Source of the DNA: Nanobdellota archaeon
GTDB taxonomy: Archaea; Nanobdellota; Nanobdellia; Pacearchaeales; GW2011-AR1
Reading direction: 5' to 3'
DNA length: 64,000 bases
Assembly (NCBI GenBank): GCA_049324275.1
Contig: JBMOLG010000001.1
Coordinates: 47,606-111,605 of the forward strand
This document shows, in pieces, positions 10,236-59,332 of this stretch (the first letter of the stretch is position 1; every line of letters begins with the position of its first letter). The notes beneath the pieces are model-generated. The model was not told the origin of the DNA. It saw only the letters and a list, made by a program, of their open reading frames with translations, and did no database searches. The position numbers and the translations under genes are program-made.

Positions 10236-10237
10236 TC

Positions 10238-16021: not shown

Positions 16022-16092
16022 AGTTCTATCTGGTGAATAGGGTATAAAAAGATTAAGATTAATACTTAATTCCGAGCAGAAGATAAGATTTA

Positions 16093-16635
16093 TTATTCTT
16101 TTTTTAGAAATTCTCTATAACTTATCAACAATTTATTTGATGTCTTCTTAATATCGCTTAATACCTCTTCAAGTCCCGGATGAATATTGCCATAATTAAT
16201 CTCATTAGTTTTTATCCAGCAATAGCCTGAATGCTCCCAATTAAGATTAGGTTCAAAATTTAATCTTTCTTTCTTATTAATTACAAGAAGAAAAGTGTAA
16301 TAAGTTAATCTTGAATTTGCATATGCGAATGGATTTGTCAGGAGTTTTCCATTTGGCAGATATCCCATTTCTTCAAATGATTCTGCAACTGCTGTTATAA
16401 TTGGGCTTTCTAAATTATTTTTATATAATTTACTCATTCCTCCTGAAATGGAAAGAATTCCCGGATTTCTGACTCTCAAGGATCTTTCTAAGGCTAAAAA
16501 TTCTTTTGTCTCTGCTGAATAAATTAAAATGCCTGCCCCAACTTTTCTTTCAAAGTTATCTGGAATATTTTTTCCTAGAGAGTAATCTTTCAGTTGAGAG
16601 TATTGCTGATATGTTAGGGAGGAATTATTTTGCAT
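16093..16635 (-). CDS. hypothetical protein, possibly a divergent Nudix-fold protein
   Basis: GGMSKLYKNNLESPIITAVAESFEEMGY resembles a degenerate Nudix box (AExxEExGY). Last gene of a four-gene overlapping operon. Confidence 0.3.
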   Translation of the reverse strand: MQNNSSLTYQQYSQLKDYSLGKNIPDNFERKVGAGILIYSAETKEFLALERSLRVRNPGILSISGGMSKLYKNNLESPIITAVAESFEEMGYLPNGKLLTNPFAYANSRLTYYTFLLVINKKERLNFEPNLNWEHSGYCWIKTNEINYGNIHPGLEEVLSDIKKTSNKLLISYREFLKKE

Positions 16636-40089: not shown

Positions 40090-42276
40090 TTATTTTTTAT
40101 CTTTTTTTAAATTCTTATTTTTTTCTGAGGCAGAATTTTTGGCACTTTGTTTGATAGGCTTTTCTATTGACTTAGAAACAGTTTCTAATGCATAATCAAA
40201 ATCTTCTTTTAAAATTTTTAATGACTCTGATTTTTTTATTTTGTAAAATCGCTTGATGGAATTCAGCCCTGCATTTCTACAGACTGCTTCAATATCCGCA
40301 CCAGTCCAGCCTTCTGTCTTTTCAATATATTCATTAATATTGACGGACTTATCAAGAGGCATATTTCGTGTATGCACTGCAAATATTTTTTCTCGCGTTA
40401 TTTTATCTGGAAACGGAAGCTCAAGAATAGAATCAATTCTGCCTGGCCTTAATAATGCCGGATCTATCAAATCTTTTCTGTTAGTTGCAGCAATTATTAT
40501 TACTTTTTCAAGTTCTTCAATGCCATCCAGTTCTGTAAGCAATTGATTTACAACCCTTTCTGTAGAGTCAGTCAAGGAACTGCCACGCGCTTTTGATATG
40601 CTGTCAAATTCATCAAAAAATATTATTGAAGGAGATACCTGCCTTGCTTTTTTGAAAATTTCACGAACATGTTTTTCAGATTCTCCTACCCATTTGCTGA
40701 TTAATTCAGGGCCTTTTACTGAAATAAAATTTGCATTTGCTTCATTTGCGACTGCTTTTGCCAACAGGGTTTTTCCTGTGCCAGGGGGCCCTGTCAATAA
40801 AACTCCCTTAGAAGCTTTGATTCCTGCTGAAACAAATAAGTCCGGCCTTAACAAAGGCAATTCAACCAATTCTCTTAATTTTTCCTTTGCCTCTTCCAAG
40901 CCTCCAACATCATCCCAAGTCACGTGAGGTTTTTGTATGAGGACTTCACGCATTGCCGAAGGCTCCACTGATTTAAGGCCTTCGATAAAATGATTTCTTT
41001 TTACTTTTATTTTATCCAAAATTTGTGTAGGGACTTTTTCCTGAAGATTTTTCAATTCGTTAAAATAAGGCTTAATGGACTTTAATGCCGCTTCCTTGCA
41101 GAGAACTTCGATATCTGCACCCGTAAATCCAATAGTCTTTCTTGCAATTTCTTCAAAATTCACATCTTTATCAAGGGGCATACCCCTTGTATGGATCTGC
41201 AAAATTTCTTTTCTTCCGGATTCATTAGGGGGATTAATTCTCAACTCTCTGTCAAATCTTCCCGGTCTTCTTAAAGCTTCATCAATATCATCGGGTCTAT
41301 TAGTCGCAGCCATCACGACTACTTGTCCTCTTGTTTTCAGCCCATCCATCAAAGTTAAAAGCTGGGCTACAATTCTCCTTTCTGTCTGGTCTGTTCCCTC
41401 CCCTCTTTTAGGAGCTATTGAATCAATTTCATCAATAAAAATTATTGCAGGCGCACTTTTTTCAGCTTTATCAAATACATCTCTTATATGTTTTTCAGAT
41501 TCACCATAATATTTCGACATGATTTCAGGCCCTGCTATTGAAAAAAATGCAGAATCAGTCTCATTTGCGACTGCTTTTGCCAACAGGGTTTTTCCTGTGC
41601 CAGGGGGCCCTGTCAATAAAACTCCCTTAGGGGCGCCAACCCCTAATTTTTGAAAAACTTCGGGATGCTTCATCGGCAATTCAACCATTTCTCTTATTAA
41701 TTCAATCTCTTCTTTCAAGCCCCCAATGTCTTCATACGATACGCCTGTCGCCTTTAATTCCCCGCTGTAAGGGACATCGGAAACAGTGATCTTTGTCGAA
41801 GGCGTGACAATTACATAAGTTTTTGGATTTGTTTTTGAAACTACATAACCCAATCTTGTGCCAAAGACATCAATAACTGTTTTTTGATTTTGGGCCAATG
41901 GCTTGTGCATAAGCTTTGAATGAAAATATTCTGTTGGATCATCGCTGAATCTTACCTCTTCGAGAGGGGAAAGAACAATAGATTTTGCTTCTTCAATTTT
42001 TATTTTGCTGACAACAATTTTGTCTCCAATTGAAGCGCTTATATTTGAACGCACAGTCCCATCAAGGCGAATGATATCATTTTTTTCATCTTTAAGGGAT
42101 CTCATTGCCTTGACAACGCTTGTTCCTTTAGCTTTAATTTCTAAAATATCTCCTGATACTAAACCAAAATAATCCATAACTTTAGATGGAATTCTAGCTA
42201 TTCCCTTATCAATATCTTCCTGAATAGATTCTGCAATTTCAAGCTCTATTTGATTTGGATTTTTTTCAGTTGTCAT
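40090..42276 (-). CDS. cdc48: Cdc48/VAT-type AAA+ ATPase (two AAA domains)
   Basis: Two Walker A sites [22 protein letters not shown], two Walker B sites ([18 protein letters not shown]), and an N-terminal double-psi barrel region. Confidence 0.9.
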
Positions 42277-42875
42277 CTTATAAGCCTAACTTTTTCATTT
42301 AAAATTAACAATGCTTCACCATCTTTTAATCTATATATTGATTGAGAAATTTCTTTTTCAATTTTACTAATTCTCTTTTCCCTATCCTTTGCATAATGAG
42401 GAGCAATTATCATGCCCGTTAAATTTATCCCTGCATAATTTTTTAACTTAATATTATTATTATCAAATGCGATCCGAATATCCGGACCTGCAATAATCGT
42501 TCCTGCACTTACTCCTACATATGCAACTCCTTTATTTACTAATTCACAAATTTTATCTGAAAATTTAGTTTCATTTAATCTCTTCATTAGATAAAAAGTG
42601 TTACCTCCTTCGATGTAAATAGAATCTATGTTATCTAACACTTTATAATCTGGATTTCTATCTAAATCAAATTCAAATAAATTTTTTTTGCTTATACCTG
42701 AATTGAATATTTCAATTTTATTTTCTTCTACATAGAATTTATCTTTCTCTACGTTTGAAGCTGTAGGAATGTATAATATTTTTATTTCTTCCTTAGGCTT
42801 ATCAATAATCTCAAAAAATTTATCTCTAACTTTTTCATTATCAAAGCCAGTGGAAGTTAATAATAATTTTTTCAT
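42273..42875 (-). CDS. pepE: peptidase S51 (dipeptidase E-like)
   Basis: GGNTFYL, GVSAGT (Ser nucleophile) and APHY (His). Confidence 0.65.
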   Translation of the reverse strand: MKKLLLTSTGFDNEKVRDKFFEIIDKPKEEIKILYIPTASNVEKDKFYVEENKIEIFNSGISKKNLFEFDLDRNPDYKVLDNIDSIYIEGGNTFYLMKRLNETKFSDKICELVNKGVAYVGVSAGTIIAGPDIRIAFDNNNIKLKNYAGINLTGMIIAPHYAKDREKRISKIEKEISQSIYRLKDGEALLILNEKVRLIR

Positions 42876-43261
42876 TTTTTCTTTTCAAATTTTAATTCAA
42901 GTACTCCATTTTTCATTGTATGGCTGAATTTTTTTGCATCAACAAATGGAGGGAGAATTTTCTTAATCAAAATTCCGTGCTTAAGCTTAGACATTAAATA
43001 TTCCTGAACCCCTCCATCTTCAGACTTTGAAGCTTTTATCATCAGTTCTTTCCCTTTTGTATCAATGCTTATATCTTTTTCATCATAGCCAGGGAGTTCA
43101 AATACAATAAAAATATGTTTTCCTGTTTCAATAAAATCTATTATTCTATCTTCTTCTTCTCCTTTTATTATGGTTTCCCTCTCTCGCCCACCCCTTCGAG
43201 GTCCAAAAAATTCTCTAATCAAATCTTCAAACGGATCTTTCTCTCCAAAAAAGTCTGCCAT
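42872..43261 (-). CDS. hsp20: Hsp20/alpha-crystallin small heat-shock protein
   Basis: ACD pattern IFIVFELPGYDEKDISID...LMIKA...GVLELKF. Confidence 0.8.
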   Translation of the reverse strand: MADFFGEKDPFEDLIREFFGPRRGGRERETIIKGEEEDRIIDFIETGKHIFIVFELPGYDEKDISIDTKGKELMIKASKSEDGGVQEYLMSKLKHGILIKKILPPFVDAKKFSHTMKNGVLELKFEKKK

Positions 43262-43305
43262 TTTTCACCTTATATTAAAATTATGAAAGATAACTTATAA
43301 ATTTT

Positions 43306-43656
43306 TTGTTTAATTTTTTAATTTATTGTAACTACAAGTTATTTAAACTTAACAAACTTATAACTGTAATGTATGACATAGACCAAAATTCTGATTGCAG
43401 ATTGATTTTAACAGGAGATAATGGGCCTGAATTAAAGAAAATCCAGACTAATTTTATTAATGATTTAAATTGGTTATTACAAGAACAAAAGGTTGAATCA
43501 TTTAAAGCTTCGTTCAGTTTCCCTTCTATTTTTGGATTTTTTCTTTATGGATGCAAATGGATGGAGATTGAAGCTGTAAAAGAAGGCAGAAAATCGAAAA
43601 TTATCTCACATGCGAAGTATGGGTTTATTCCTTATCTTATAGGCGGACCAACTTAA
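43306..43656 (+). CDS. hypothetical protein
   Basis: 116-aa ORF. Confidence 0.3.
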   Translation: MFNFLIYCNYKLFKLNKLITVMYDIDQNSDCRLILTGDNGPELKKIQTNFINDLNWLLQEQKVESFKASFSFPSIFGFFLYGCKWMEIEAVKEGRKSKIISHAKYGFIPYLIGGPT

Positions 43657-43759
43657 CAATATATATAGAATGATTATCCTAAGTCAGAATCGCTAGATAT
43701 GTTATTAAAGAATGAATTAAAAGTTTAGGGGATTTTTTTAGAAAAGAATATATGAAAAT

Positions 43760-44056
43760 TTAGCACAACCTTATTCCCCTTAATTTCATCAATGAACTGA
43801 AATCATCAAAGGTTGCGTGATACGGATAAATTAGATATTGAGACTTTCTACTTTTCATGTTTCCTTCAATTTTAAATATAAATCTTCGCCCATTATCTAC
43901 GCATATGGAATAATCCCTAAAATCCCCCCTGCTCTCAAATTCCAGGCTTGAACCAGGCACTATGTGCTGATATAATTCCAACAATTCCTTGGCAGCTTCT
44001 TCTATATTTGCAGGTTTCAATGTAAAATTAAATTTTAATCCTCTATGATGTGTCAT
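43760..44056 (-). CDS. hypothetical protein
   Basis: 98-aa ORF. Confidence 0.3.
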   Translation of the reverse strand: MTHHRGLKFNFTLKPANIEEAAKELLELYQHIVPGSSLEFESRGDFRDYSICVDNGRRFIFKIEGNMKSRKSQYLIYPYHATFDDFSSLMKLRGIRLC

Positions 44057-44157
44057 AGATATCCCAAAAAAGAATGATTTTTAAATCTATTGAAATTTAA
44101 GAATGATAAAAATTTATAAATAAAGTTGACTTATTAATATAACTTTAGAGTAGTAAT

Positions 44158-44562
44158 ATGGGAAAAAAATTAGCAATATTAAGTATAGGAGCATTAGCAT
44201 TTCTAGCTTTTAGCATGCATGAGCCAAATTTGGAAAAAAAGCCCTTGAATAAAGGTTATAACACAATAAATTATATGACTAAGCATAATACGCAAAGGAC
44301 TGCGAAATTAGAAGGCACAGTTATGGACATTGAAAAATACCCATATTTAATTCACAGCAAAAACAATAAGCAGAACCTAGAATCTGCAGATGTATTGCAT
44401 ATTGAAGCAAAAGATGGCGAAGATTATATTATAATCTCAAAAAAGCATTTTCAGATAGGGCAAGGAATAAAAATTGATTATTATCCTTTAGATAATTCAA
44501 GAGAGCAATATAAAATTCCGGATTCTGACTTGATTATCATTGCTAATGGGGTTGCCCAATAA
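44158..44562 (+). CDS. hypothetical secreted protein
   Basis: 134 aa with signal-like LAILSIGALAFLAFS. Confidence 0.35.
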   Translation: MGKKLAILSIGALAFLAFSMHEPNLEKKPLNKGYNTINYMTKHNTQRTAKLEGTVMDIEKYPYLIHSKNNKQNLESADVLHIEAKDGEDYIIISKKHFQIGQGIKIDYYPLDNSREQYKIPDSDLIIIANGVAQ

Positions 44563-44591
44563 AAATATAAATCTTTAATTTATTTAATCTT

Positions 44592-45164
44592 ATGGATTTG
44601 GATTACAAAAAGTTCCGCTGGTTTAAAACTTCTTCTGGAAAAATTGTGATTGGCGGAAAGAATGAAGATCAAAATGAAGCTATTGTCAAAGAGTTTATCG
44701 GAAAGAATAATATTATAATACATACTGAAGAGCCAGGAAGTCCTTTCTGCATAATTATGAATGAAAAAGCAAGCAGAGAGGATATAGAAGAAGCATCAAT
44801 TTTTACAGCCAGCTTTTCCCAACAATGGAAAAAGAAAAAATCAAAGGCTCAAGTCAATATTTTTTCCGGAAAAGATGTTCATAAAGAGAAAAGCATGAAG
44901 ACAGGAACTTTTGGTGTAAATAATTCGAAGAGAAAAAATGTTGAATTAAAATTAAAGATTGCTGTTCAGGATGAAAAGATTAGGGCTATCCCGCTTAATG
45001 CAGAATCTGAAATAAATTTGCCGGAGATCATTTTAAGCCCTGGAATGATTCCCAAAGCAGAAGTTTCAAAGCTTATAAAACAAAACTTAAAAAATTACAA
45101 TTTTTCCTTAGAAGATATTGAACAAGCCATACCTTCTGGAGGGTTTAATATAAGAAAAATTTAA
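44592..45164 (+). CDS. DUF814/NFACT-R domain protein
   Basis: IVIGGKNEDQNEAIVKEFIGKNNIIIHTEEPGSPFCII matches the NFACT-R pattern (GkNaxeND...HaxxxpGsHvvi). Confidence 0.5.
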   Translation: MDLDYKKFRWFKTSSGKIVIGGKNEDQNEAIVKEFIGKNNIIIHTEEPGSPFCIIMNEKASREDIEEASIFTASFSQQWKKKKSKAQVNIFSGKDVHKEKSMKTGTFGVNNSKRKNVELKLKIAVQDEKIRAIPLNAESEINLPEIILSPGMIPKAEVSKLIKQNLKNYNFSLEDIEQAIPSGGFNIRKI

Positions 45165-45733
45165 TTTCCTCTTCTTCTATTTGCCCTTAATGAAGGTCTA
45201 ACTTTTGGAGCTTTTATTGAAGAATTCCTTAATCCTCTCGCCCGCTTTCCTGCAGAAGTTATCCCTCTAAAGGACTTGTTTTTTGGCGAATTTGAAACAT
45301 AAGAGAGCTGTTTGTCTGATTTTATTTCAGGAGCATTTCTATCTGCTAATATTACTTCAAAGAAATAATGCATGCCATCCTTTCCAATTTGGTAAGAGTT
45401 TATTACTTCCATGTTAGGGTATTTTCTTGCCACTCTTTGTTCTGCGACTTCTCTATAATTCATTTTAAGAATTTTCTTTATAGTCATTCTCTTGCTTCTT
45501 CTTCCTTTTTCAGGCCTTGGCTTTTTTCTTCCCCCCCTGATTAATCTAACTCTGACAACAATGATTCCCTTTTTTGCTTTATAGCCAAGTTCATGTGCTC
45601 TATGCAATTTTAATGGCTTTTCAACTCTGACAATTACAGGAGATTTCCTCCATTCAACCATCCTTTGTTTTAATGTATCATTATCAGGATTTTTCCATGT
45701 TTCTCTCTGATAGTAATATGAACCTTTTACCAT
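45161..45733 (-). CDS. rpl15e: 50S ribosomal protein L15e
   Basis: YQRETWKNP...LGYKAKKGIIVVRVRL...GRRSKR...PSLRANRRRG is colinear with L15e. Confidence 0.9.
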   Translation of the reverse strand: MVKGSYYYQRETWKNPDNDTLKQRMVEWRKSPVIVRVEKPLKLHRAHELGYKAKKGIIVVRVRLIRGGRKKPRPEKGRRSKRMTIKKILKMNYREVAEQRVARKYPNMEVINSYQIGKDGMHYFFEVILADRNAPEIKSDKQLSYVSNSPKNKSFRGITSAGKRARGLRNSSIKAPKVRPSLRANRRRGN

Positions 45734-45791
45734 TTTAACACATAATGAATAGGGTTTTTAAAGCTTTTTGAGAATTTAATATAACAATTAA

Positions 45792-45912
45792 TGAGCCTGC
45801 GCAGATTCGAACTGCGGACCCCTGCCTGTCTGAAATCAATTGATTTCGGACACCCAAAATCTTGATTTTGATGTTATCAGAGCAGTGCTCTACCTGGCTG
45901 AGCTACAGGCTC
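45792..45912 (-). tRNA. tRNA-Ile (anticodon GAU) with a ~47-nt intron at the canonical 37/38 position
   Basis: Reverse complement folds as acceptor GAGCCTG/CAGGCTC, D-arm GCTC...GAGC, anticodon stem CTGCT with loop CTGATA|intron|A, 3' stem GGCAG, T-arm CGCAG-TTCGAAT-CTGCG. The intron contains the 16-nt palindrome GAAATCAATTGATTTC. Confidence 0.75.
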
Positions 45913-45958
45913 ATATTAAGTGAAAAAATAGCACTTATTTAAAGGTTTCTTATTATTT

Positions 45959-47221
45959 TTACATCCAATTAACCCGCAAAAAATGAGTAGAACACGAAAA
46001 GCAGGGATCATATGCCCTGATTAATTTTTCTATCTCAAGAACAAGATTTTCTTTGCTTATTTTTTTGTTTTTCTCTAAAAGATATTCGACAAAATTCTTA
46101 ATGTCCTGTTCGAGCATTGCGAGATTTTGGGCAGTGGGAGTTATAATGTTGCAATAAGAAATTTTTCCAGTATTATCAATTTTATACTCATGAAACAAAG
46201 TTCCGCGCGGGGCTTCAACAGCTGAAATTCCGCTTCCGGACTTTATTTTTATCTTTTGCTCTTTGTTGTCTGAATTTAATTTTTTTAATAATACCAATGC
46301 TCTCTGCCTGAAATAAGAAAGTTCTATAGCCTGAGCAATAATGTTGTGAAATGGATTTTTAGATGGAAATCTATTTTTAAGGAAATGTTTTGAATGCTCA
46401 TCTAAAGATTCGAGATTGTTGTTTATTCTGGAGATTGCACCGACCATAAATGGTTTAGAGTTCTGCAAAACGAATTTTGATGTGGCATATTCTTTAATGT
46501 TCTCCTGCAGATATTTCTTGTAATCATCGACTTCGACTAATTTATCAGCAGAACCAATCTTTCCAGAAATTGTCGCATATTCAGAGTCTTTTAATGACAG
46601 ATAAAAAGATTCCCTTTCAAAACCATGATAATCTAAATTCGAAAATAAATTTATTGTTTCATCAATCAATTCTTTTGACTCTTCTAATTTCTCAATCAAT
46701 TCTTTAAAGTTTAGATCTTGAGGCAGGCTTTTGTTCATGCATAAAAATGGATGAATTTCTCTTCCTCCAAAGATTTCAACAATTTTGTTTCCCAATGAAA
46801 TTAAAGATAATGCATTATCAATTTTTTCCCGGTGTTTTTTTGACATTTCTAAAGCAGAACTAAAGCCAAAATAATCAGGAAGCGAGAAAAAGTATAAATG
46901 AGTTACGTGACTTCGTATTCTTTCCCCGATCATTAATAATTCACGGATAATTTTCTGCTGTTCTGCTGGCTTAATTCCCAAAGCATTTTCGAGCGCCTGA
47001 ATGCATGCGATTGTATGGGCAGAAGAGCAAATCCCGCAAATTCTTGAAACAATTTCCTGAATGTCTTCCACATTTCTGCCTAAAACTAATGCTTCAAAAA
47101 ATCTTGCGCCTTCTGCGGCTTTCAATTCACAGGTTTTTATTTTATTGCCTTCAATTTTCAGGCTTAAATGCGCATGCCCTTCTATTTTGCAGATGTGATT
47201 TAAGTTTATTTCTTTGACCAT
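45959..47221 (-). CDS. [NiFe] hydrogenase large (catalytic) subunit, group 3
   Basis: N-terminal RICGICSSAH (L1, Ni-Fe ligands) and C-terminal DPCFSCSTH (L2). 420 aa. Confidence 0.85.
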   Translation of the reverse strand: MVKEINLNHICKIEGHAHLSLKIEGNKIKTCELKAAEGARFFEALVLGRNVEDIQEIVSRICGICSSAHTIACIQALENALGIKPAEQQKIIRELLMIGERIRSHVTHLYFFSLPDYFGFSSALEMSKKHREKIDNALSLISLGNKIVEIFGGREIHPFLCMNKSLPQDLNFKELIEKLEESKELIDETINLFSNLDYHGFERESFYLSLKDSEYATISGKIGSADKLVEVDDYKKYLQENIKEYATSKFVLQNSKPFMVGAISRINNNLESLDEHSKHFLKNRFPSKNPFHNIIAQAIELSYFRQRALVLLKKLNSDNKEQKIKIKSGSGISAVEAPRGTLFHEYKIDNTGKISYCNIITPTAQNLAMLEQDIKNFVEYLLEKNKKISKENLVLEIEKLIRAYDPCFSCSTHFLRVNWM

Positions 47222-47264
47222 TCTCTTTTAAATCTAAAATAAAAAAGAGTTTTTATATTCATCG

Positions 47265-47633
47265 TCACAAATATTCCTTCCAGTTATTTTTATGATCTTT
47301 ATACAAGACTAATCTTTCTCTTCTTTCTATTTTGCGGTGATTATAGACTTCAATGAAAACATCTGTAACATCTACAAGATATTCAGCTGAAGCTTTATTA
47401 GTTGAAGGCGATTCAAGAATAAACAGGTAATTCATGTCCTGCGAATGGCTATTAGGAATCTTAAGATTCCTTTGCTTTTTTATTTCTTTTAAAGATTCTA
47501 TTGAATAAATGTCAATAAAAAGTCCGGATCCGAATATTTCTTTCCTGATTAATTCAAGGGTTTTTTGAATTTGGAATGGCTCCAGATGAAGATGAACAAA
47601 TGCGTAAGCTTCCCCCAACCCCTTCTGATTCAT
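47265..47633 (-). CDS. hypothetical protein, paralog 1 (G-x-A-[YF]-AF family)
   Basis: 122 aa starting MNQKGLGEAYAFVHLHL. Immediately upstream of the hydrogenase large subunit. Confidence 0.35.
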   Translation of the reverse strand: MNQKGLGEAYAFVHLHLEPFQIQKTLELIRKEIFGSGLFIDIYSIESLKEIKKQRNLKIPNSHSQDMNYLFILESPSTNKASAEYLVDVTDVFIEVYNHRKIERRERLVLYKDHKNNWKEYL

Positions 47634-47746
47634 GTGCAGAATTATATTCTTCTGTATAAAAGTTTATTTGAAAGAAAAATCAAAGGCAAATATATTTTTT
47701 AAGTTCCGAAATATCAAATTAATACGCTAAATTAGAACATCAAAGA

Positions 47747-48085
47747 TTACATTATTACTTTATAGGAATCCCTTTCCTTATAGAAAATTTGAGCTTGGGC
47801 TCTTTCCCCATTATTATAAAGTCCTGAATCTTCTAACTTACTCACAACAGAAGATAATTCTTTTGCAGTTTTTCTATTATCCAAATTAGGATCTGTAGAT
47901 ATTAATACATAGTTTGCTTTAGGAGAATGCTTAATTTTCTTTGGCAATTCCAATTTTTTAAAATCATCACTCGCATAAAGTTCTAAGCTCCTCTTTTCAG
48001 GAGTATTTAATTCTCTTGCAACGTCTTCTGGCTTGGCACTGCAACTGAAAAATGCAAATGCCTGTCCAACTGGTTTATTTTTCAT
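47747..48085 (-). CDS. hypothetical protein, paralog 2 (G-x-A-[YF]-AF family)
   Basis: 112 aa starting MKNKPVGQAFAFFSCS. Confidence 0.35.
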   Translation of the reverse strand: MKNKPVGQAFAFFSCSAKPEDVARELNTPEKRSLELYASDDFKKLELPKKIKHSPKANYVLISTDPNLDNRKTAKELSSVVSKLEDSGLYNNGERAQAQIFYKERDSYKVIM

Positions 48086-48162
48086 GCAAAAATTCAGAAA
48101 AACTCTCTTTATAAACTTTTTTATTTTTTGTTACTTTAAAGTTAAATCAAATATTTAAAGTT

Positions 48163-49863
48163 TTAGCTTTTCAACTTCTTAAAAATAAAATTAAAATAAT
48201 CTGTTTTAAAAGAATTTGCCATTTTCTCGACAATTAACTCGGGAGTTGAATGCGCCAACCTTCCGATTACAGGGTTATGATCTACAATCAATTCAAAATT
48301 ATCATCAAGCCCTTTGGCTTCTATGCCGTCAATCCTTGCCCCTTTTGGAAGTGACTTTTGAATTTCAAATCCCAAGTGTGTTGCTATAACTAAAAAGCAA
48401 TCTTTAGAAATGAAATACTCTGCTGTAGCAGAAATGATATTGCCTGCAACGCCTGGCTCTGTTACTGATTCAATTTCATCTGCTAAAATCAAAGTTTTTC
48501 CTTCAGGATTAATTTGCGACATTTGAGTCAAGAGGGTTTCAAAGGCGCCCTTGCTCATTGAGCCCTTGTTTTTTGCAAAATAATAGACCTGATTAAAAAT
48601 AGGAAGATTCAAATTTCCTGAAACAGGAAGGCCTATTTGAGACAATGTAACTAATTGAATAATATGTTCCAACAGAGTTGTTTTTCCTCCTGAATTTGCT
48701 CCAGTTAAAATAGAGCACTTATGCTCATTATTCAGATTAAAACAAACTGGTTGGGCGTTTTCCAAAAAAATATTTTTTGAATTTGTAAACTTAAGTTCTT
48801 CAGCATGTTTAGGATAATTTTCAAAGCTTGAGATAAAGTTAGAGATTCCGGATATAAAATCAAATATTAAAAGTTCGGCTGAAATTTTTTTTAATTTTTC
48901 AGGAGCGGATTTGAGGCTTTTAGAATTCTGCTTTAAGATTGCGGATTTATCTGTGAATTCCGACGTATTTTGGCGTTTTATAAAATTGTCAAGCTCTCGT
49001 TCATCAACCTCAAGAGGAATTGAGATGCTGAACAAATGAGATGGAATTTTTGTTTTGGAAATCTCAGAATTGATGATTTCTTTTAATTCACAGGGAATTC
49101 CTTTTTTTAAAATTGAAAGCAAGGATTCACCAGAAACAGTCATTGTTTTTATTTGTGAAAAGATTTTTTCGTTGATATTTTCCAGCTCTTCAAAGATTTT
49201 TTCTTTGCTTAAGATTTCTGTTTTAGACCTGACAAGATTCAGGATTGACAAAAGTTCTTTGATTGTTTCCTGCTCAAAATTGTTATTCATTAAGACTTCA
49301 AAATTCTCCTGCCAAGATGAAAGCAAGATAAGATAACGCTCTAAATAAGCATCTTCTAGGTTATTTACAAAAATTGCTTGCGGGAGGCTTTCTAAGAAAT
49401 TTGAAAATTGATCGCAATCAACAACATAAACTAAATCGTATCGCTCAAGATAGGCAATATCATTTTCAGTTGCAATGAACTTGACTGTGCATCCAAATTC
49501 CTGCAGTTTTGAAAGATTCTTTTCATTTTCCGTAACAATAACTGCATCATAATTTGGCTTCCATGAAGATTTCGGCACAGAAATTTTTTTTAAGAATTCA
49601 TTGTCAATATTTTTAGCGATAGACTTAAAAAAATCCTGGCGGTTTTTTATCTCTTCAAAATCTGGCGTGAAAGGGAAGCAGGTTAACAAATTAGAAGTGT
49701 CTGCAAAGTAGAAGTTAGAGTTGATTGCACTGATTACTTTGTTATAAACAGATTTTGCATCCTTTGTTTTGAATATTGTTTCTTTTGCATTCACGCTGGT
49801 TTTTGTTTTATTGAACGGGGAGAGATTATTTTTTTCTATATAATCAAGCATCTTTTTTTCCAT
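48163..49863 (-). CDS. MutS-like ABC ATPase (MutS domain V; archaeal MutS2-like)
   Basis: Walker A GANSGGKTT, Walker B LILADEIESVTEP, and a MutS-type signature region upstream. Confidence 0.65.
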   Translation of the reverse strand: MEKKMLDYIEKNNLSPFNKTKTSVNAKETIFKTKDAKSVYNKVISAINSNFYFADTSNLLTCFPFTPDFEEIKNRQDFFKSIAKNIDNEFLKKISVPKSSWKPNYDAVIVTENEKNLSKLQEFGCTVKFIATENDIAYLERYDLVYVVDCDQFSNFLESLPQAIFVNNLEDAYLERYLILLSSWQENFEVLMNNNFEQETIKELLSILNLVRSKTEILSKEKIFEELENINEKIFSQIKTMTVSGESLLSILKKGIPCELKEIINSEISKTKIPSHLFSISIPLEVDERELDNFIKRQNTSEFTDKSAILKQNSKSLKSAPEKLKKISAELLIFDFISGISNFISSFENYPKHAEELKFTNSKNIFLENAQPVCFNLNNEHKCSILTGANSGGKTTLLEHIIQLVTLSQIGLPVSGNLNLPIFNQVYYFAKNKGSMSKGAFETLLTQMSQINPEGKTLILADEIESVTEPGVAGNIISATAEYFISKDCFLVIATHLGFEIQKSLPKGARIDGIEAKGLDDNFELIVDHNPVIGRLAHSTPELIVEKMANSFKTDYFNFIFKKLKS

Positions 49864-49960
49864 TCGTTAAAAAAACCCGCAGGGTTTTTAAGTTTCGCTG
49901 TGATGTTTTGGATAATTTTAAAAACTCATTTTTTATTAATGAATTAGCAAGAATTCTAAG

Positions 49961-50614
49961 ATGAAAAATTTACTGCAAAACTTTCTGCCATGGGTAGAAG
50001 AGAAAAATGAGAACTTTCAGGTAAAAATAATAGATGGAACGACAAGAGAAGAAAGAAATTTTGAAGAGACTAATATTGAAACAAGAAATTATGGGATGTA
50101 CCCAAAGACAGGGGATTGGATACAAATTGCGAGATATGCAGTCAGGGGGCCTGAAAGCATTTACATTCCTGCAAGGGTTGTCATAACAAAAGAAAATCCA
50201 ATAGTTTATATTGATTTAATGGATTGGAAAATGCCGATAGTCCATAACGCAGACTCATATTCAAATTTCATAAGCCCTGCTAGTTGTGAAAAAGGATACA
50301 TGGCACTGAAAGAAGAGGAGGAGCGATTAAGAGGAAAAGGAGTTGGTTATGAAATTATTTTAAGGGATGCTTTTGAAAAAACAATTGCAATTAAGAGAAT
50401 GCCTTTTTTGAAAAATTATTGGGAATTGACACTAACAAATTATCAGGCAGGCAAGCCTCCTTTTCCTGAGCTATTTAATTCAGATGATTTATTTGATGAG
50501 ATTAATGGATTATCAAAAGAAGAGTTAATAGTTGAGGCAGTTTTACATCCGATTGTTGGTTTGCCAAAGGTTTTGGTGTTAGATGTTGAGGAAAAGGATA
50601 TTTTTAGGTTCTAA
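49961..50614 (+). CDS. hypothetical protein
   Basis: 217-aa ORF. Confidence 0.35.
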   Translation: MKNLLQNFLPWVEEKNENFQVKIIDGTTREERNFEETNIETRNYGMYPKTGDWIQIARYAVRGPESIYIPARVVITKENPIVYIDLMDWKMPIVHNADSYSNFISPASCEKGYMALKEEEERLRGKGVGYEIILRDAFEKTIAIKRMPFLKNYWELTLTNYQAGKPPFPELFNSDDLFDEINGLSKEELIVEAVLHPIVGLPKVLVLDVEEKDIFRF

Positions 50615-50693
50615 TGATTTTTATTGTTTGGGTTTTTGGGGGAAGAGTTTAGATAAAAAGTAACTTTTATAATGTAGATTTTTATTTACTTTT

Positions 50694-52241
50694 ATGCCAA
50701 CATTAAACTGGATTGGAAAAGAAGCAGTCATAAATCATGATAAAGAGGTTCCATTCAAACTTCTCAAAAAGGTTAAAGCATATTCTGTGGGAAATAATTC
50801 TCAAAATTTAATTATCAAAGGAGATAATTTAGAAGGGCTTAAAGCACTAATGCCTTATTATATTGGAAAAGTAAAATGTGTCTATATAGATCCGCCATAT
50901 AACACAGGAAATGAAAATTGGGTTTACAATGATAAAGTAAATTCTCCTAAAATAAAAAAATGGCTCGGAAAAGTTGTCGGAGGAGAAGCTCAAGATTTAT
51001 GCAGACATGACAAATGGCTTTGCATGATGTATCCTCGACTTAAGCTTTTGAGAGATTTGTTGAGTGATGATGGCGTGATCTTTGTTAGTATTGATGATAA
51101 TGAGAATCATAATCTCAGATTTTTATTAAATGAAATTTTTGGCGAAGTGAATTATATTCAAGAGATAGTCTGGCATAGTAAGTACACAGTATCAAATGAT
51201 GCAAAATTCTTTTCAAGACAACATGAATATGTTTTATGTTATGCTAAAGATATTCAAAAAGTATCCGCTGTTTTCTCTGTTCCAAGAACTGATGAGGCAA
51301 ATAATAGATATTCAAATCCAGATAATGATCCACGAGGCCCATGGAAAGCCACCCCACTGCATGCAAAAAGTGGAAAAGAAGAAAATAATTTTGAATATGT
51401 TTTTAAAAATGGAATAAAATAGAAACCTCCTAAGGGACGCTATCATCGCTTTAATAAAGAAAGTTTAGAAAGATTAGATAAAGAAAATCGATTATGGTTT
51501 GGAAAAGATAAAAAAGCAATGCCTTCCGTAAAAACTTTTCTATCAGAAGTTTCCGAAAAAATGAAATCTGGAAGCATCCTCCCATTTAATTTAGTAGGAC
51601 ATACTCATAAAGCAAATGAGCAACTTGCAAATTTAATGGACAAAGGAACATTTGATAATCCAAAATCAGTAGATTTAATTAAAATTTTAAGTTCAATGGT
51701 AACTTCCACTTCCGACATAATTCTCGACTCATTCGCAGGTTCGGGAACAACGGGACATGCGGTTTTAGACTTGAACAAAGAAGATGGGGGAAACAGAAAA
51801 TTTATTTTGATTGAGATGGAAGATGATATTGCTAAAAATATTACAACTGAACGAATCAAAAGGGCAATAGAAAAATATGATTACAAAGACGGATTTGAAT
51901 ATTGTGAATTAGACAAGCCTCTATTCGATGAGAACGGGCAGATAGAGGAAACTTGCGAGTTTAATCAGTTTGCAACTTATATTTATTTTACCGAAACCCA
52001 AACAAATATAGACAAGAACAAAATAGACAAAAACTTCATCGGAGAATTTGGAGAAACAGAATATTATCTTATCTATAAAGAAAAAATGAAAAATGTTTTA
52101 GATAAGAAGTTTTTATCTAAGTTAAAAAAGACAAAAAATAAAAAAGTCATTTATGCTGACTTTTGTATGATTGATGAAGATACATTAAAAATTTCTAACA
52201 TTCAATTTAAACAGATTCCTTATGAGGTGAAGGTTTATTGA
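50694..52241 (+). pseudogene. mod: Type III-like N6/N4 DNA methyltransferase (Mod) interrupted by a single in-frame TAG at 51420-51422
   Basis: ORFs 50694..51422 and 51519..52241 are in the same frame. The sequence reads through as ...FKNGIK*KPPKGRYHRFNKESLERLDKENRLWFGKDKKAMP.... Motif IV VYIDPPYNTG precedes motif I FAGSGTTGHAV (beta-class order), with the LNWIGKE start typical of this family. Confidence 0.75.
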
Positions 52242-52715
52242 ATGATAAAAAATAATTACATAAAACTTTTTGAAAAATTATCTGAACAAGAACCAAATTC
52301 AATAATCCTTATTGAAAAATTTGAGGATTTAGGCTTCTTTTTAACAGATTTTGAATCAATGCATGAAGAGAAATTTATATTTTTGCAAAAGATTAGAGAA
52401 AAAAATAAAGGGGGTAATTGGATAGAAAAATTTTATATTAAATTAGCCCCAAGAGGGTTCTCTTCTTTAGAAGAATTTAATAAAAATGAACAGCAAGAGA
52501 AATTTAATCATAAGACTCTTAAGGCAACAATAATAATTACAATTGCAACAGCTTTAAATGTTTTAGTAACTCTTTTTATATTTCTATTGAATTTGGAAAA
52601 ATCAAATTGGGCAAAACCTGCATCCCTTATACTAATTGGAATTTTTATTAGTTTTCTAACAGGAATATTAATTAAAGAAATTTGGTATTTTATATTTTTC
52701 AAAGAAAATGATTAA
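52242..52715 (+). CDS. small membrane protein encoded between mod and res
   Basis: 157 aa: soluble N-terminal part plus two C-terminal TM helices (IIITIATALNVLVTLFIFLL, LILIGIFISFLTGILI). Its start abuts the mod stop. Confidence 0.45.
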   Translation: MIKNNYIKLFEKLSEQEPNSIILIEKFEDLGFFLTDFESMHEEKFIFLQKIREKNKGGNWIEKFYIKLAPRGFSSLEEFNKNEQQEKFNHKTLKATIIITIATALNVLVTLFIFLLNLEKSNWAKPASLILIGIFISFLTGILIKEIWYFIFFKEND

Positions 52716-52768
52716 CACAAATAAAATAAAAGAAATAGTTAAATTTACAAAGAACTCAATTAAATAAA

Positions 52769-55039
52769 ATGGTAGAACTAAAAAAATATCAGCGAAAATC
52801 AATAGACATATTAAAAGATTATCTTAAGGAATTGGAGAAAAATGGAAGCAAGAGGGCGTTTATGTATATTACTGAAACGCCGTATAAATCTGAATTTTTT
52901 AATGAGGTTCCTTTTGTTTGCATAAAAATACCTACAGGAGGGGGAAAAACCTTTGTTGGTTGTCATTCTGTTGTTGAGATTATGTCTTCTATCTTAAAAC
53001 ATAAAATGGATAGAGGTATTGTTATGTGGTTTGTCCCATCAGAAGCAATAAAATCACAAACCCTAAAAAAATTCAAAGACCGAAACGATTGGCACAGAAA
53101 AGTTTTAGACGAAGCATTTGACAACAATATAAGAATTTTCTCAAACGAAGAAGCATTAAGAATAAGAAAAGAAGATGTTGAAGATAATATCTGTATAATA
53201 ATTTCAAGTTTAGAAGCATTTAGAAAAGAAAAAGCAATTCAAAATAAATACAAAGTTTATCAAGAAAATGGAGCACTATTAAGCCATTTTGAAAATTTAG
53301 AAGAAAAAGATTTTTTAGAAAAGGACGAACATAATACAATAATAAATTCTCTTGCAAATGTCATAAAATTATCAAATCCTTTAATTGTAATAGACGAAGG
53401 GCATAAAACAAAAACAAAACTTTCTATTGAATTTATGAGAGACTTGAACCCAAGTTTTATTATTGAGTACACAGCAACGCCAAGACCAGAAAGCAATATT
53501 TTAGTTGAGATTCACTCTTCTGAACTAAAAGGAGAACAAATGGTTAAGCTCCCGATTGTTCTTGAAAGTACAGCTCAATGGCAAAATTCAATTTTAAGAG
53601 GAGTTTTGAAAAGAGAAGAGCTAGAAAAAGAATCAAAAAAGAACAAATCTGAATATATAAGACCAATAGCACTTTTACAAGCAGAACAAGAAAAAGAATC
53701 AGATAATAAAATTACTGTCCAAAAGATCAAAGATTTTTTGATAAAAGAGAGAAAAATTCCAGAAGAAGAAATTGCAATTAAAACTTCAAGCATTAATGAA
53801 TTAGAAGGAATTAATCTTTTTAGCCAACAATGTAAAATAAGATATATTATAACTGTTAATGCTCTTGCAGAGGGGTGGGATTGTTCTTTTGCTTATGTTT
53901 TAATTTCTGTCGCAAATATTGGCTCAAAAATAGCAGTTGAACAGATTATTGGAAGAATTGTAAGAATGACTAATGCTCGAAGAAAAGAAAACGAAGCATT
54001 AAACAGGAGTTATATTTTTGCATCAGCAAAGAATTTTCAGGAAGCAAGCGAACAGATAATTTTGGGATTAGAGAGCAACGGATTTAGCAAGCTAGATTTA
54101 ATCAATGCAACAAACGAAGATCAAACACATGAATTAGATGTTGAAAAAGCTGTAAAAGAAAATTTATTTGTTCCCATGCTCGCTTTTGAAGATGAAAAAT
54201 TATCTTTTGAAGATTTAATCGGAGAAGAGTTTGAACTTGCAAAACAAAATGCAGAATTTGATTTTACTATTAATTATGATAATGATGGAAGAGCATTAAT
54301 TGATATTCAAGGCCAAGACAAATGGGTAAAAAGTGCTCAACAAATCTTAAAGATAACTTACAAAGATAAAAATTTTTCAAAAGAGGAACTTATCCAATGG
54401 TTAGACAAAAAACTAAGATTTACTATTTTAGAAAAATCAGACAAAATTAAATTTATACAAAAAGTTATAGAATATCAATTAAAGAAAAAATCTCTTTCTG
54501 AACTTTCAGTAAACAGATATGTTTTAGTTACAAAATTAAGTGAGATAATAAATCATATATTGGAAGATTATGCTAAAAAGAGATTTGATGAATTCATTAA
54601 AAATAAAAAAATAAGTGTGAAAGATTTTGAAAAATTCCCGGAAAAAATAACACTTTTCCAAGAGATATTTCGGGGATTTAATAAAAATTATTATTCAAAA
54701 ATAGACAGGTTGAATAAAGAAGAATTAAAATTTGTTGAAAGATTAGATTTAGAAACATTACCAAATATTAAATTTTGGATAAGAAATAGAGAAAAGAAAG
54801 ATCCTTTTTTCATACAAGGCTGGAAAAAAAATAAATTTTATCCAGATTTTATTGCTGTAACTAAGAATAATAATATTATTGTTTTAGAGTGGAAAGGAGA
54901 AGATAGAAAAAGCAATGAAGATACACAATATAAGGAAGAAATAGGAAAAATATGGGAATCAATAGATAAAAATTTGCATTTTTTCTTAGTCCATAATGGA
55001 AATATTGAAGAAATATTATCTAAACTAAAAAATTTATAA
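52769..55039 (+). CDS. res: Type III restriction enzyme Res subunit (SF2 helicase plus C-terminal PD-(D/E)xK nuclease)
   Basis: Walker A KIPTGGGKTF, DEGH box LIVIDEGHKT, motif VI QIIGRIVR, and a C-terminal nuclease-like YPDFIAV...VLEWKGE. Confidence 0.7.
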   Translation: MVELKKYQRKSIDILKDYLKELEKNGSKRAFMYITETPYKSEFFNEVPFVCIKIPTGGGKTFVGCHSVVEIMSSILKHKMDRGIVMWFVPSEAIKSQTLKKFKDRNDWHRKVLDEAFDNNIRIFSNEEALRIRKEDVEDNICIIISSLEAFRKEKAIQNKYKVYQENGALLSHFENLEEKDFLEKDEHNTIINSLANVIKLSNPLIVIDEGHKTKTKLSIEFMRDLNPSFIIEYTATPRPESNILVEIHSSELKGEQMVKLPIVLESTAQWQNSILRGVLKREELEKESKKNKSEYIRPIALLQAEQEKESDNKITVQKIKDFLIKERKIPEEEIAIKTSSINELEGINLFSQQCKIRYIITVNALAEGWDCSFAYVLISVANIGSKIAVEQIIGRIVRMTNARRKENEALNRSYIFASAKNFQEASEQIILGLESNGFSKLDLINATNEDQTHELDVEKAVKENLFVPMLAFEDEKLSFEDLIGEEFELAKQNAEFDFTINYDNDGRALIDIQGQDKWVKSAQQILKITYKDKNFSKEELIQWLDKKLRFTILEKSDKIKFIQKVIEYQLKKKSLSELSVNRYVLVTKLSEIINHILEDYAKKRFDEFIKNKKISVKDFEKFPEKITLFQEIFRGFNKNYYSKIDRLNKEELKFVERLDLETLPNIKFWIRNREKKDPFFIQGWKKNKFYPDFIAVTKNNNIIVLEWKGEDRKSNEDTQYKEEIGKIWESIDKNLHFFLVHNGNIEEILSKLKNL

Positions 55040-55124
55040 ATTAGTCTACCGAACTATCCTTCTTACATCCAGTTAACCTGAAAAACCCAACAAAACTTTT
55101 AAACATCATACGCAAATCAAATAG

Positions 55125-56912
55125 ATGGCAGAGATAATTATCAATGAATCATTTTCAGACGATGATTTTCTTTTTGACAGGGTTGAAAATGGGGAGTTTG
55201 AATCACCTGAAATCCTCAAGCTGAAAGTTGATGCAGAGGAGATTGTGAAGGACAAAAAAATCAACGAGCTTATTTCTTATGACATAATAAAGAAAAATCT
55301 AGAGTATAAGCTTCCCTACCAGACTAATGGGGCTTTAAGAATTTTGAGGGACTTTAATGGCTCTGCTCTTCTTGCTGATGAGGTCGGGCTCGGCAAAACA
55401 ATAACAGCAGGGTTGGTATTGAAAGAGAGTATTGTGAGGGGATTTGTAACTAAGGCTTTGATTTTAACTCCTCCGTCGCTTGTGGACCAATGGGTTTCTG
55501 AATTAAAAGAAAAGTTTGAGCTTGATTTTAAGATTATTGAGAATCCATCAGACTGGAAAAAAGCCAATTTTGCCATAGCTTCGATAGATAGAGTAAAGGC
55601 TTATGATAAAGAATTAAGAAGATTCCGCCATGAAGAGGCCCATAATATTTCATGGGATATCTTGATTGTCGATGAGGCTCATAAGTTGAAAGAGAAAAAC
55701 ACAATTCGGTGGAAGTTTATTGACAGCATTCCAAAAAAGAGATTTTTAATTTTAACAGCAACGCCATTCCAAAATGACCTGATTGAATTATACAATCTGC
55801 TTCATTTGCTGAAAAAAGGGCATCTCGGGACAATAAAAGAGTTCAGAAAAAAATTTTTGCATAAGGGAAACAAAAGATATCCGTTAAATCCAAAGGAATT
55901 GAAAGCAAAGCTCGATGAAGTGATGATAAGAAGAAGGAGATATGAAACAGGAATTAATTATAAAAAAAGAATACCAAGAATTGAAGTTGTCGAATTAACT
56001 GATGAAGAAAAAGTCATCTATGACAATACATGCGAGCTTCTGAAGTCAAATTATTTTTCAGCAGGCGGAAGCGAGATTAACGGGCATTTGATAATTTATG
56101 CTATTTTACCGAAGATAACAAGCTCATCAAAGTCAGCAATGGAATCGCTGAACAAGATTGCTTCTGATGAGAAGTACCATAAGGCAACAAGAGAACTGGC
56201 AGAAGGCATTTTAGAAGATTATAAAAAGCTGAAAAGAGATTCTAAGATTGAAAAATTAGTTGAAATTGTTGAAAGGATCTTAAAAGAGGATGCTGAATCA
56301 AAAATATTAATTTATACAAAACATCCTACCACTCTTGAGTATATAGCAGAAAAATTAAAGCCATACAATATTAAGGTTGTAGAATTTACAGGGGGGCTTA
56401 ACAGAGAGGAGAAAACTGAAAAGATAAAAGAGTTCAAAGAGAATGCACAAATAATGATTAGCACTGAGACGGGTTCAGAGGGGCTTAATTTTCAGTTTTG
56501 CAACAATCTCATAAATTATGACCTGCCATGGAATCCCATGTCTGTTGAGCAGAGGATAGGAAGGCTTGATAGAATCGGGCAAAAGAAAGACATGAACATA
56601 TTCAGCCTCGCAACAAAAGGCACAATGGAAGAGCATGTGGTAGACCTGATAATAAACAAGATGTGTTGTGTAGGCTTAGTAATTGGAGAGCTTCCAATTA
56701 TCTTGTTTAACCTCGGGCTTGACAGCGAAGGAGTTACAGGAAGGAGCAGAATAGAAGAGCATTTGATGAATTCGTTTATAGATTCAAAGAACAATTTAGA
56801 CAAATTTGCAATGGAAATTGAAAAAATAGGGAAGCTTATACAAAGAGGAATAGACGATTATAAAGAAATAAATGAACAAAACTCACAATTACTAGATGAA
56901 AAGCGAAATTGA
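55125..56912 (+). CDS. SNF2-family helicase
   Basis: All SNF2 hallmark blocks: DEVGLGKT (I), LIVDEAHKLK (II), LTATPFQNDLIELYNLLHLL (III), QRIGRLDRIGQKKDMNIFSL (VI). Confidence 0.9.
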   Translation: MAEIIINESFSDDDFLFDRVENGEFESPEILKLKVDAEEIVKDKKINELISYDIIKKNLEYKLPYQTNGALRILRDFNGSALLADEVGLGKTITAGLVLKESIVRGFVTKALILTPPSLVDQWVSELKEKFELDFKIIENPSDWKKANFAIASIDRVKAYDKELRRFRHEEAHNISWDILIVDEAHKLKEKNTIRWKFIDSIPKKRFLILTATPFQNDLIELYNLLHLLKKGHLGTIKEFRKKFLHKGNKRYPLNPKELKAKLDEVMIRRRRYETGINYKKRIPRIEVVELTDEEKVIYDNTCELLKSNYFSAGGSEINGHLIIYAILPKITSSSKSAMESLNKIASDEKYHKATRELAEGILEDYKKLKRDSKIEKLVEIVERILKEDAESKILIYTKHPTTLEYIAEKLKPYNIKVVEFTGGLNREEKTEKIKEFKENAQIMISTETGSEGLNFQFCNNLINYDLPWNPMSVEQRIGRLDRIGQKKDMNIFSLATKGTMEEHVVDLIINKMCCVGLVIGELPIILFNLGLDSEGVTGRSRIEEHLMNSFIDSKNNLDKFAMEIEKIGKLIQRGIDDYKEINEQNSQLLDEKRN

Positions 56913-58290
56913 ACAAATACAGGAATTTACAATTAATTTCTTCAAAAATCTGAAATGCAAAATTTCAGACGGAGAAATCATAATTATAGAAAATGTTCCA
57001 AAAGATTTTGAAGAATTCTTCAAAAAAAAATCACCTTATCAACTTGCCTTTTCAGAAGAAAGCAAAACTGAAGAATCAATTTTAGTTGCAAAAGGAAGCA
57101 GTTTATTGAATGCAATCCGGTCATTTTTAGAAAAAAGCGGAAGCACTACATTATTGAAAATAGATTTTGATGTTGACTATAAAGATTTTGTGAAAAAATA
57201 TTGTTTTAAAAATGCAGAGATTTCAAATGTTCAGGTGAAGAAAAAAAATAATTTCTTTTCAAGGTTTACTTTTTTGACTACATTCCAATATCTTAATGAT
57301 AAAGAACAAATCTTAAATGAACTTTATGTGCACAATGGAGAAATTGTAGAGGGAGATTTGCATGGGTATGAGGTGGTTGAGGGAAGAAAAGAAGATGTTT
57401 CTGTTGAAAAAATTGAAGAAGATTGCAATATTGCGAAGCAAAATCTTAAGCTGAGAATTGAAAAGAAAACAGAAGAGGTAAAGAATTTTTTGAATCAAAG
57501 ACTGGAAAAAGAAATTTCCAGAATTCAAGGGCATTATATTAATCATTCAGAAGAATTAAAGGCAGGATTAATTGAAGAGCTCAATAAACTGAAGCAAGCC
57601 GGGGAAAAAATTTCAAATGAAGATGAAAAATACAAGCTTAATAATAAGATAAATGAAGTGCTGAAAAAAATTGATTCATTGGAGCGAGGAGAAACATTTG
57701 AAAAAATTGAAAAAGAAAAAAGTTCGGCAATCAACGGAGAAACACAAAAGCACAGCCTCAATATCCATAATAAACTTATTAACACAACAATAATATATTA
57801 TCCGGTGTATCATTTTGAAATTCTTTTGAAAAATAAGTTTGCAAACAGAGTTGTTACAATAATTCATAATCCATTGACCCAAGAAACAAATTCATTGTTT
57901 TGCGAGTCATGCAAATTACAAACTGATGATTTATATTTATGCTCCTCAGGCCATATATCGTGCATCAAATGCATGAATCGATGCATGAGCTGCAGTGGCG
58001 AGTTTTGCGAGCCATGCCTTAAAAAAAGGTGTGAATATTGCGGGGCTAAATTATGCAATAATTGCGGGGAAAGATGCTTTAGCTGCGGAAAAACTTTTTG
58101 CCAGAATCACATGAAAAATGATTCAATTACAGGAAGAAGAAGTTGCATTAACTGCCTTAAGCAATGCCCTAAGTGCTTTGAATATTCCGCTCCAAGAAAT
58201 TTCAAGAAAGATAAGAATGGCATGCAGATATGTCCAAGATGCTTTTCAAAAGAGTTTGGAAGAAATGTTGCAAGAAGAATTTTCGAATAA
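56896..58290 (+). CDS. hypothetical protein with coiled-coil middle and a C-terminal cluster of about 10 CxxC pairs (multi-zinc-ribbon), translationally coupled to the SNF2 helicase
   Basis: 464 aa. Start overlaps the SNF2 stop by 17 nt. The C-terminus reads CESCKLQ...CSSGHISCIKCMNRCMSCSGEFCEPCLKKRCEYCGAKLCNNCGERCFSCGKTFCQNH...CINCLKQCPKCF...CPRCF. Confidence 0.5.
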   Translation: MKSEIEQIQEFTINFFKNLKCKISDGEIIIIENVPKDFEEFFKKKSPYQLAFSEESKTEESILVAKGSSLLNAIRSFLEKSGSTTLLKIDFDVDYKDFVKKYCFKNAEISNVQVKKKNNFFSRFTFLTTFQYLNDKEQILNELYVHNGEIVEGDLHGYEVVEGRKEDVSVEKIEEDCNIAKQNLKLRIEKKTEEVKNFLNQRLEKEISRIQGHYINHSEELKAGLIEELNKLKQAGEKISNEDEKYKLNNKINEVLKKIDSLERGETFEKIEKEKSSAINGETQKHSLNIHNKLINTTIIYYPVYHFEILLKNKFANRVVTIIHNPLTQETNSLFCESCKLQTDDLYLCSSGHISCIKCMNRCMSCSGEFCEPCLKKRCEYCGAKLCNNCGERCFSCGKTFCQNHMKNDSITGRRSCINCLKQCPKCFEYSAPRNFKKDKNGMQICPRCFSKEFGRNVARRIFE

Positions 58291-58352
58291 TTAGTACTAC
58301 TTTAAAAAAATAACAAAATAAAGTTTAAAAACTCATTGGACAATTTTTATTT

Positions 58353-58997
58353 ATGAAATATAAATATTTAGCATCATCTGAGGCGAGAAATGAAATAAGA
58401 GCTATCTCAAATAATTTAGCCGAATATCTGCATGAAAATCAAATCAAAAGCATTATTTTTTTAGACCGGTCGGCCAGGCTCGGCTATATCGGACTTAGAT
58501 ACGCATGGAGCGACTTGTACCCTAATGAAAAATGCCCCGATGTTTATTTTACAAATCCTGAAGTGTATAAGAGAAATAGAAAGATTGCCATAAAAGAATT
58601 TGATGGGAAATACAAAAGATTAGCTAAGAATAAAGAATCTAAGATCATGTTATTTGACACTTATATATGTACGGGGGACACAATTTATTCTGTAAAGAAA
58701 GTTATGAATAAAACAGGATATAAAAATATTGAACTAGGAATATCAAAACCTAAAAGCCCAAACATTTTAGCAGTATTAGCGAGAAAAATTAAATTTCAAG
58801 ATAAAACAAATTTTCATGCTTTAAATTACATCCCCAATTATATGTGCTGTCCATTTGGAAAAGATTCAATGGTTGAAAAATCAAAAAATAAAATATTTTC
58901 ATCAAGAACAAAAAGCATGATTAATAGAAAAAAATCTTTAGAACTCAGGGCGGAAATAAAAGATATTTTTGAAACATGGTTAAGTTTGAAAGAATAA
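58353..58997 (+). CDS. hypothetical protein with phosphoribosyltransferase-like motif
   Basis: IMLFDTYICTGDTIYSV resembles the PRTase PRPP-binding motif (hhhhDDhhxTGxT). Confidence 0.35.
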   Translation: MKYKYLASSEARNEIRAISNNLAEYLHENQIKSIIFLDRSARLGYIGLRYAWSDLYPNEKCPDVYFTNPEVYKRNRKIAIKEFDGKYKRLAKNKESKIMLFDTYICTGDTIYSVKKVMNKTGYKNIELGISKPKSPNILAVLARKIKFQDKTNFHALNYIPNYMCCPFGKDSMVEKSKNKIFSSRTKSMINRKKSLELRAEIKDIFETWLSLKE

Positions 58998-59221
58998 TAA
59001 CAGAACTATTTGATAAGTATACATATGGAAAGATAAAGGCATTAAACAGAGCATCAGAAATGCAAGAGGGCGGTCAAATACAGTTGATATACCTCAAAGA
59101 TAACGAAGCAAAATACAGGATTCGGAGAGAACAACTTATTGATGGACAGTCAGAGACCATTACTTACTATATTTATTTTGTAAAGGATGAGAATGGACTT
59201 TGGAAGATTGATAGGTTTTAA
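58976..59221 (+). CDS. hypothetical small protein
   Basis: 81-aa ORF overlapping the previous gene by 22 nt. Confidence 0.3.
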   Translation: MVKFERIITELFDKYTYGKIKALNRASEMQEGGQIQLIYLKDNEAKYRIRREQLIDGQSETITYYIYFVKDENGLWKIDRF

Positions 59222-59233
59222 CAGTAGAAACGA

Positions 59234-59332
59234 AAGTATTTTAAAGTCAATTGATTAACCATCTGTAAAGTTGCATCCTGCAATTGAGATGGAGGAAGTA
59301 TTTTAAAGTCAATTGATTAACCATCTGTAAAG
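59234..59332. repeat. two identical 37-nt direct repeats separated by a 25-nt spacer, in the intergenic region upstream of the 59364 gene
   Basis: aagtattttaaagtcaattgattaaccatctgtaaag at 59234-59270 and 59296-59332. Each contains the palindrome TCAATTGA. Confidence 0.8.

Follow-up and report, generated by a model that had tools for sequence, protein, structure and literature searches.

[quoted passage not shown] Such systems cut DNA in an ATP-dependent reaction requiring two unmethylated sites in inverse orientation, and they hemimethylate an asymmetric site. Recognition of the DNA site is the task of the Mod subunit, which guides Res there, and expression of Mod raises the amount of Res, probably via stabilization (PMC3874151). 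Mutagenesis of the P1 lysogen gave r-m- or r-m+ phenotypes only; a lethal r+m- phenotype came from c2 mod mutants, with purified Mod that had no methylase activity because it failed to bind SAM (PMC3874151). In phase-variable Type III systems a premature stop switches mod off and res is left in place (PMC3874151).

Here we examine a mod-res locus of an uncultured archaeon, on a 128,139-bp contig of a metagenome-assembled genome (MAG) that is labelled Nanoarchaeota archaeon at NCBI (locus tags ACOYT4_00685 to 00725). Throughout, the window is the whole stretch of DNA that was analyzed, 64,000 nucleotides long. By gene content, order and motifs the system in the window is a Type III R-M system. 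As in EcoP1I and EcoP15I, its Mod belongs to the beta class of N6-adenine methyltransferases, with the order DPPY, recognition region, FxGxG, and it matches EcoP15I Mod (4zcf, E 1e-49) as well as another solved Mod (6k0w, E 7e-66). Like EcoP15I-type systems, it has mod ahead of res with both genes on one strand, and its Res is an SF2 helicase carrying a PD-(D/E)xK motif in its C-terminal part. Both of its subunits are shorter: the solved EcoP15I Mod chain has 644 aa and this Mod 515 aa, and EcoP Res is of about 106 kDa and this Res has 756 aa; a sequence-level search of the PDB gave no match for this Res. The locus also differs from EcoP1I and EcoP15I in having an extra 157-aa ORF between mod and res, in its host, a Nanoarchaeota (DPANN) archaeon, and in that mod is broken.

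The locus resembles phasevarions in that mod is likewise stopped early with res in place. However, phasevarions shift frame reversibly through simple-sequence repeat tracts, whereas this mod has a base substitution, which would revert only at the ordinary point-mutation rate. Between 50000 and 58500, Tandem Repeats Finder (minimum score 30) detected only arrays of 2.0-2.5 copies, with periods of 6-15 bp and scores of 30-56, and as there is no simple-sequence tract we rejected repeat-driven phase variation. R-M pseudogenes caused by point mutations occur in Helicobacter pylori and other bacteria. With these the locus shares a single disabling mutation, an R-M pair that is otherwise intact and the absence of further decay; there is no difference in kind, the window being an archaeal example in a MAG.

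Results

Layout of the divided mod gene

The mod gene comprises 515 codons (50694-52241, + strand) and is cut by one in-frame TAG (Table 1). In the translation of the ORF from 50694 the frame stays open for 272 more codons past this TAG, up to the TGA at 52239-52241; around the TAG it is ...FKNGIK-stop-KPPKGRYHRF... The window has about 30% G+C and a stop-triplet density of 0.064 per codon, and at that density a run of 272 codons free of stops would occur by chance with a probability of about 1e-8.

Both halves match adjoining parts of the same profiles. In Pfam N6_N4_Mtase (PF01555) the N-terminal half covers profile positions 1-148 (E 5e-25) and the C-terminal half 97-217 (E 4e-14), and the PADLOC model MTase_III (PDLC03644, 542 positions) is matched over 1-232 by the N-terminal half (E 5.5e-103) and over 250-541 by the C-terminal half (E 2.4e-74). 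The catalytic motif IV, DPPY (50889-50900, residues 66-69), precedes the TAG, and the AdoMet-binding motif I, FAGSGTT (51732-51752, residues 347-353), follows it, so that the joined mod has motif IV upstream of motif I (FxGxG), the arrangement of a beta-class N6/N4 methyltransferase. A Type III Mod is an uninterrupted single polypeptide, and this one is interrupted at codon 243. The first-pass annotation, which had described a single TAG dividing an otherwise intact mod with the expected motifs in one frame on both sides of the stop, was thus accurate on this point.

The 242-aa fragment, MFZ5954921.1, carries the public name "site-specific DNA-methyltransferase", and the C-terminal piece is absent from the NCBI proteins. 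Annotating the pair as a single pseudogene would be more fitting.

Table 1. Coordinates of the mod-res locus, given as positions in the window
Feature	Position	Strand	Evidence or remark
mod, N-terminal 242 codons	50694..51419	+	Pfam, PADLOC; deposited as MFZ5954921.1
Premature TAG, codon 243	51420..51422	+	Sequence; W in homologues; TGG in L001, L002, L003, L006
mod, remaining 272 codons and natural TGA	51423..52241	+	In frame, undecayed; Pfam, PADLOC
First possible restart ATG after the TAG	51519..51521	+	ORF list; 240-aa product
157-aa ORF with two hydrophobic segments	52242..52715	+	Directly after the mod stop, between mod and res
res, 756 aa, intact	52769..55039	+	Pfam ResIII, Helicase_C; PADLOC REase_III, E 2.8e-84

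The codon before the stop arose

The joined mod sequence matched thousands of homologues, and we used the best 120 of these (503-538 aa, 60-92% identity), all of which are uninterrupted single chains. Within this set the residue aligned to the TAG is W in 58 sequences, V in 31, F in 15, I in seven and Y in five, with T (two), S (one) and L (one) as the rarer residues; the 11 closest homologues all have W. Comparison of orthologous mod genes at this codon, a check that had been proposed earlier, gave TGG in four loci (L001, L002, L003 and L006), and L001 and L002 are about 85.5% identical to the window mod at the nucleotide level. Judged from these alignments the ancestral codon is TGG (Trp). 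Given TGG in the orthologues and W in the closest homologues, the stop arose by one G-to-A transition at 51421.

Age of the nonsense change

We estimated dN/dS by the Nei-Gojobori method with the closest orthologue, L001, as the reference (dS about 0.9-1.2). The ratio is 0.044 over the 242 codons before the TAG and 0.041 over the 272 codons after it, and the downstream half of mod contains no second stop, no frameshift and no excess of amino-acid changes. Since there is no second defect and dN/dS is equally low on both sides, the nonsense change is recent: by rough estimate, selection on the downstream half can have been absent for no more than a few percent of the time since the L001 lineage diverged.

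Agreement between assemblies

An error would likewise leave a mod gene that is perfect except for one base, with equal dN/dS in its halves. The true or dominant gene might accordingly carry TGG and the system be functional, with the TAG as a sequencing or consensus error or as a minority or mixed allele; the source is, moreover, a MAG. A second assembly, the Logan assembly of run SRR32167786, contains a 17,663-bp contig (L009) that is 100% identical to window positions 41601-59263, TAG included, and a further Logan contig (L008) that is 100% identical to positions 238-17465. The Logan assembly and the NCBI MAG may share their underlying reads. Because the second assembly carries the same TAG, an assembler-specific error is unlikely.

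Other observations bear on the quality of the window. Its coding density is 0.90; the housekeeping genes for CDC48, a class I aminoacyl-tRNA synthetase, S6e, S19e and aIF5B are intact, and among the genes examined in the 64 kb no other is split by an in-frame stop or a frameshift. With these housekeeping genes intact and the second assembly identical, we rejected poor assembly quality for the window. A collection of 15 billion proteins yielded no W allele of full length for this population: apart from three relatives of 538 aa, whose representative is 92% identical to the query, the 90% cluster holds only the 242-aa fragment. A pattern scan that left the variable base as N returned nothing from GTDB genomes and, from JGI metagenomes, only the 85%-identical L002, which has TGG. 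Agreement of the two assemblies base for base over 17.7 kb, the lack of further in-frame stops or frameshifts among the genes examined and the lack of a W allele in the protein collection all speak against an erroneous or mixed TAG, and we give that explanation a rather low probability.

Use of TAG in the window

Full conservation of the downstream half would also be seen if the TAG were decoded, whether by a suppressor tRNA, by pyrrolysine-type or other recoding or by programmed readthrough, with full-length Mod still being made, but no direct sign of decoding was found. The codon is, moreover, an ordinary stop elsewhere in the window. It terminates four other genes, those for a RadC-like protein, PfkB (gene end at 21483-21485, the case cited in the first-pass annotation), a beta-CASP RNase and a DHOD-B-like oxidoreductase. 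Each of these stops comes no more than a few residues from where a Pfam domain ends, and the readthrough tails beyond them are only 2-53 codons long. An internal TAG is found in just one of about 60 genes in the window, and the orthologues of mod have a plain TGG at this codon. No suppressor tRNA with a CUA anticodon is encoded in the window, where ARAGORN gives only tRNA-His and tRNA-Lys. Genuine TAG stops together with the lack of a CUA tRNA led us to reject recoding as far as one window shows, in keeping with the earlier opinion that genome-wide recoding is unlikely, and decoding of the mod TAG in any of these forms is very improbable.

res and the mod-res cassette

Inactivating changes were also looked for in res, as the first-pass annotation had proposed, and none were found: the gene is full length and its motifs are conserved. 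It encodes the SF2 helicase motifs PTGGGKT (52931-52951), DEGH (53393-53404) and QxxGRxxR (53942-53965), followed by the C-terminal PD-(D/E)xK nuclease motif, PD...EWK (54839-54901). Over its whole length the protein can be aligned with two Res proteins encoded after intact mod genes, that of L003 (754 aa; BLASTP identity 69%, alignment identity 70%) and that of L006 (766 aa; 60-61% identity), and all four motifs are invariant across the three proteins. Compared with L002, res has a dN/dS of 0.095 over the overlapping part only.

In the window mod lies upstream of res and both are on the + strand; in L003 and L006 the two genes abut or overlap. The 157-aa ORF that separates them in the window has no family match in Pfam, PADLOC or NCBIfam. 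The slot between mod and res varies among loci: it is occupied by two unrelated ORFs (156 and 269 aa) at positions 627-1908 of L002 and is empty in L003 and L006. The neighbors of the cassette differ as well. It is found beside aIF5B in L001, after a MutS-like gene in the window and after a GmrSD gene and two genes for MORC-like ATPases in L006. Homologues that are 60-65% identical have source names both of CPR bacteria (Parcubacteria, Gracilibacteria, Moranbacteria) and of DPANN archaea or Altiarchaeales. Together, the differing neighborhoods and the cross-domain names of the homologues suggest that mod-res is a mobile cassette exchanged across domains.

Neighboring genes

Directly after res, in the region 55125-58997, there is a gene for an SNF2-family helicase (595 aa). 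The best models for this helicase are BrxH, DrmD and DpdE, all scoring far below their curated cut-offs. Its gene overlaps a 464-aa ORF whose Cys-rich C-terminus has many CxxC pairs, and a 214-aa ORF comes next; no family was matched significantly by the 464-aa, 214-aa or 217-aa ORF. Neither NCBIfam nor PADLOC identified a named system beyond Type III among the neighbors, and 55125-58997 may represent a defence-island module of its own that is as yet undescribed. On the other side of mod, a 420-aa ORF (45959-47221, - strand) matches the nickel-dependent hydrogenase large subunit (PF00374, E 7.5e-35), being short relative to the 508-position profile.

Predicted phenotype of the locus

If the G-to-A change at 51421 has turned Trp codon 243 into TAG in the dominant genotype of the sample, translation would be expected to end after 242 residues. 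The product would retain the catalytic half with DPPY and would be without the rest of the target-recognition region and without the whole AdoMet-binding half; such a Mod would be unable to methylate DNA. By the genetics of EcoP1 and EcoP15, Res needs a Mod dimer for finding its site and for its stability, and the intact res would then be expected to be silent. The predicted outcome is an r-m- system, one that is switched off and not toxic. In other words, because Res depends on Mod for both site recognition and stability, the truncated Mod is expected to abolish restriction and methylation alike.

Could a functional methyltransferase be assembled from two pieces, the 242-aa fragment and a product restarted at the first ATG after the stop? 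This ATG sits 32 codons past the TAG, and for some other DNA methyltransferases complementation between fragments is known. A restart there would, however, drop 32 residues, including P245, P246, G248, R252, W268, F269 and G270, and these seven are conserved in 96-118 of the 120 best homologues, taken from thousands. Inspection of the sequence upstream of the ATG revealed no obvious Shine-Dalgarno-like motif, and the best 120 homologues are all made as one chain. Mainly in view of the conservation of the 32 skipped residues we judged a functional restart or a two-piece enzyme unlikely. The companion possibility, a Res that is active without methylation, is opposed by the behavior of P1, where r+m- kills the host: a genotype of this kind would not come to dominate a population. 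We regard the two, split enzyme or active Res, as scarcely credible.

Discussion

Our preferred reading is that the TAG is a real and recent TGG-to-TAG nonsense allele in a Type III mod-res pair that is intact in all other respects, a reading to which we assign a probability of roughly 0.78. Recent inactivation was among the possibilities raised by the first-pass annotation, and it is the best reading of the split mod, the undecayed C-terminal half being in its favor. The accompanying suggestion that res is a potentially toxic orphan finds no support: Type III Res depends on Mod (PMC3874151) and an r-m- state is expected. With that expectation, an intact res next to the truncated mod is neither surprising nor dangerous.

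There is a slim chance that the TAG allele is instead an 'off' state present at intermediate frequency in the population, or that it is leaky through low-level readthrough. Were the 'off' state true, some cells would be without a restriction barrier and could take up DNA or tolerate a change of host or symbiont.

Knockout of one R-M gene by a point mutation is a commonplace event, and the nonsense allele described here matters little beyond annotation. For annotation it means that the Type III system of this genome should be counted as inactive in surveys of defence systems or methylomes, and that toxicity should not be read from an intact res lying next to a Type III mod that is truncated.
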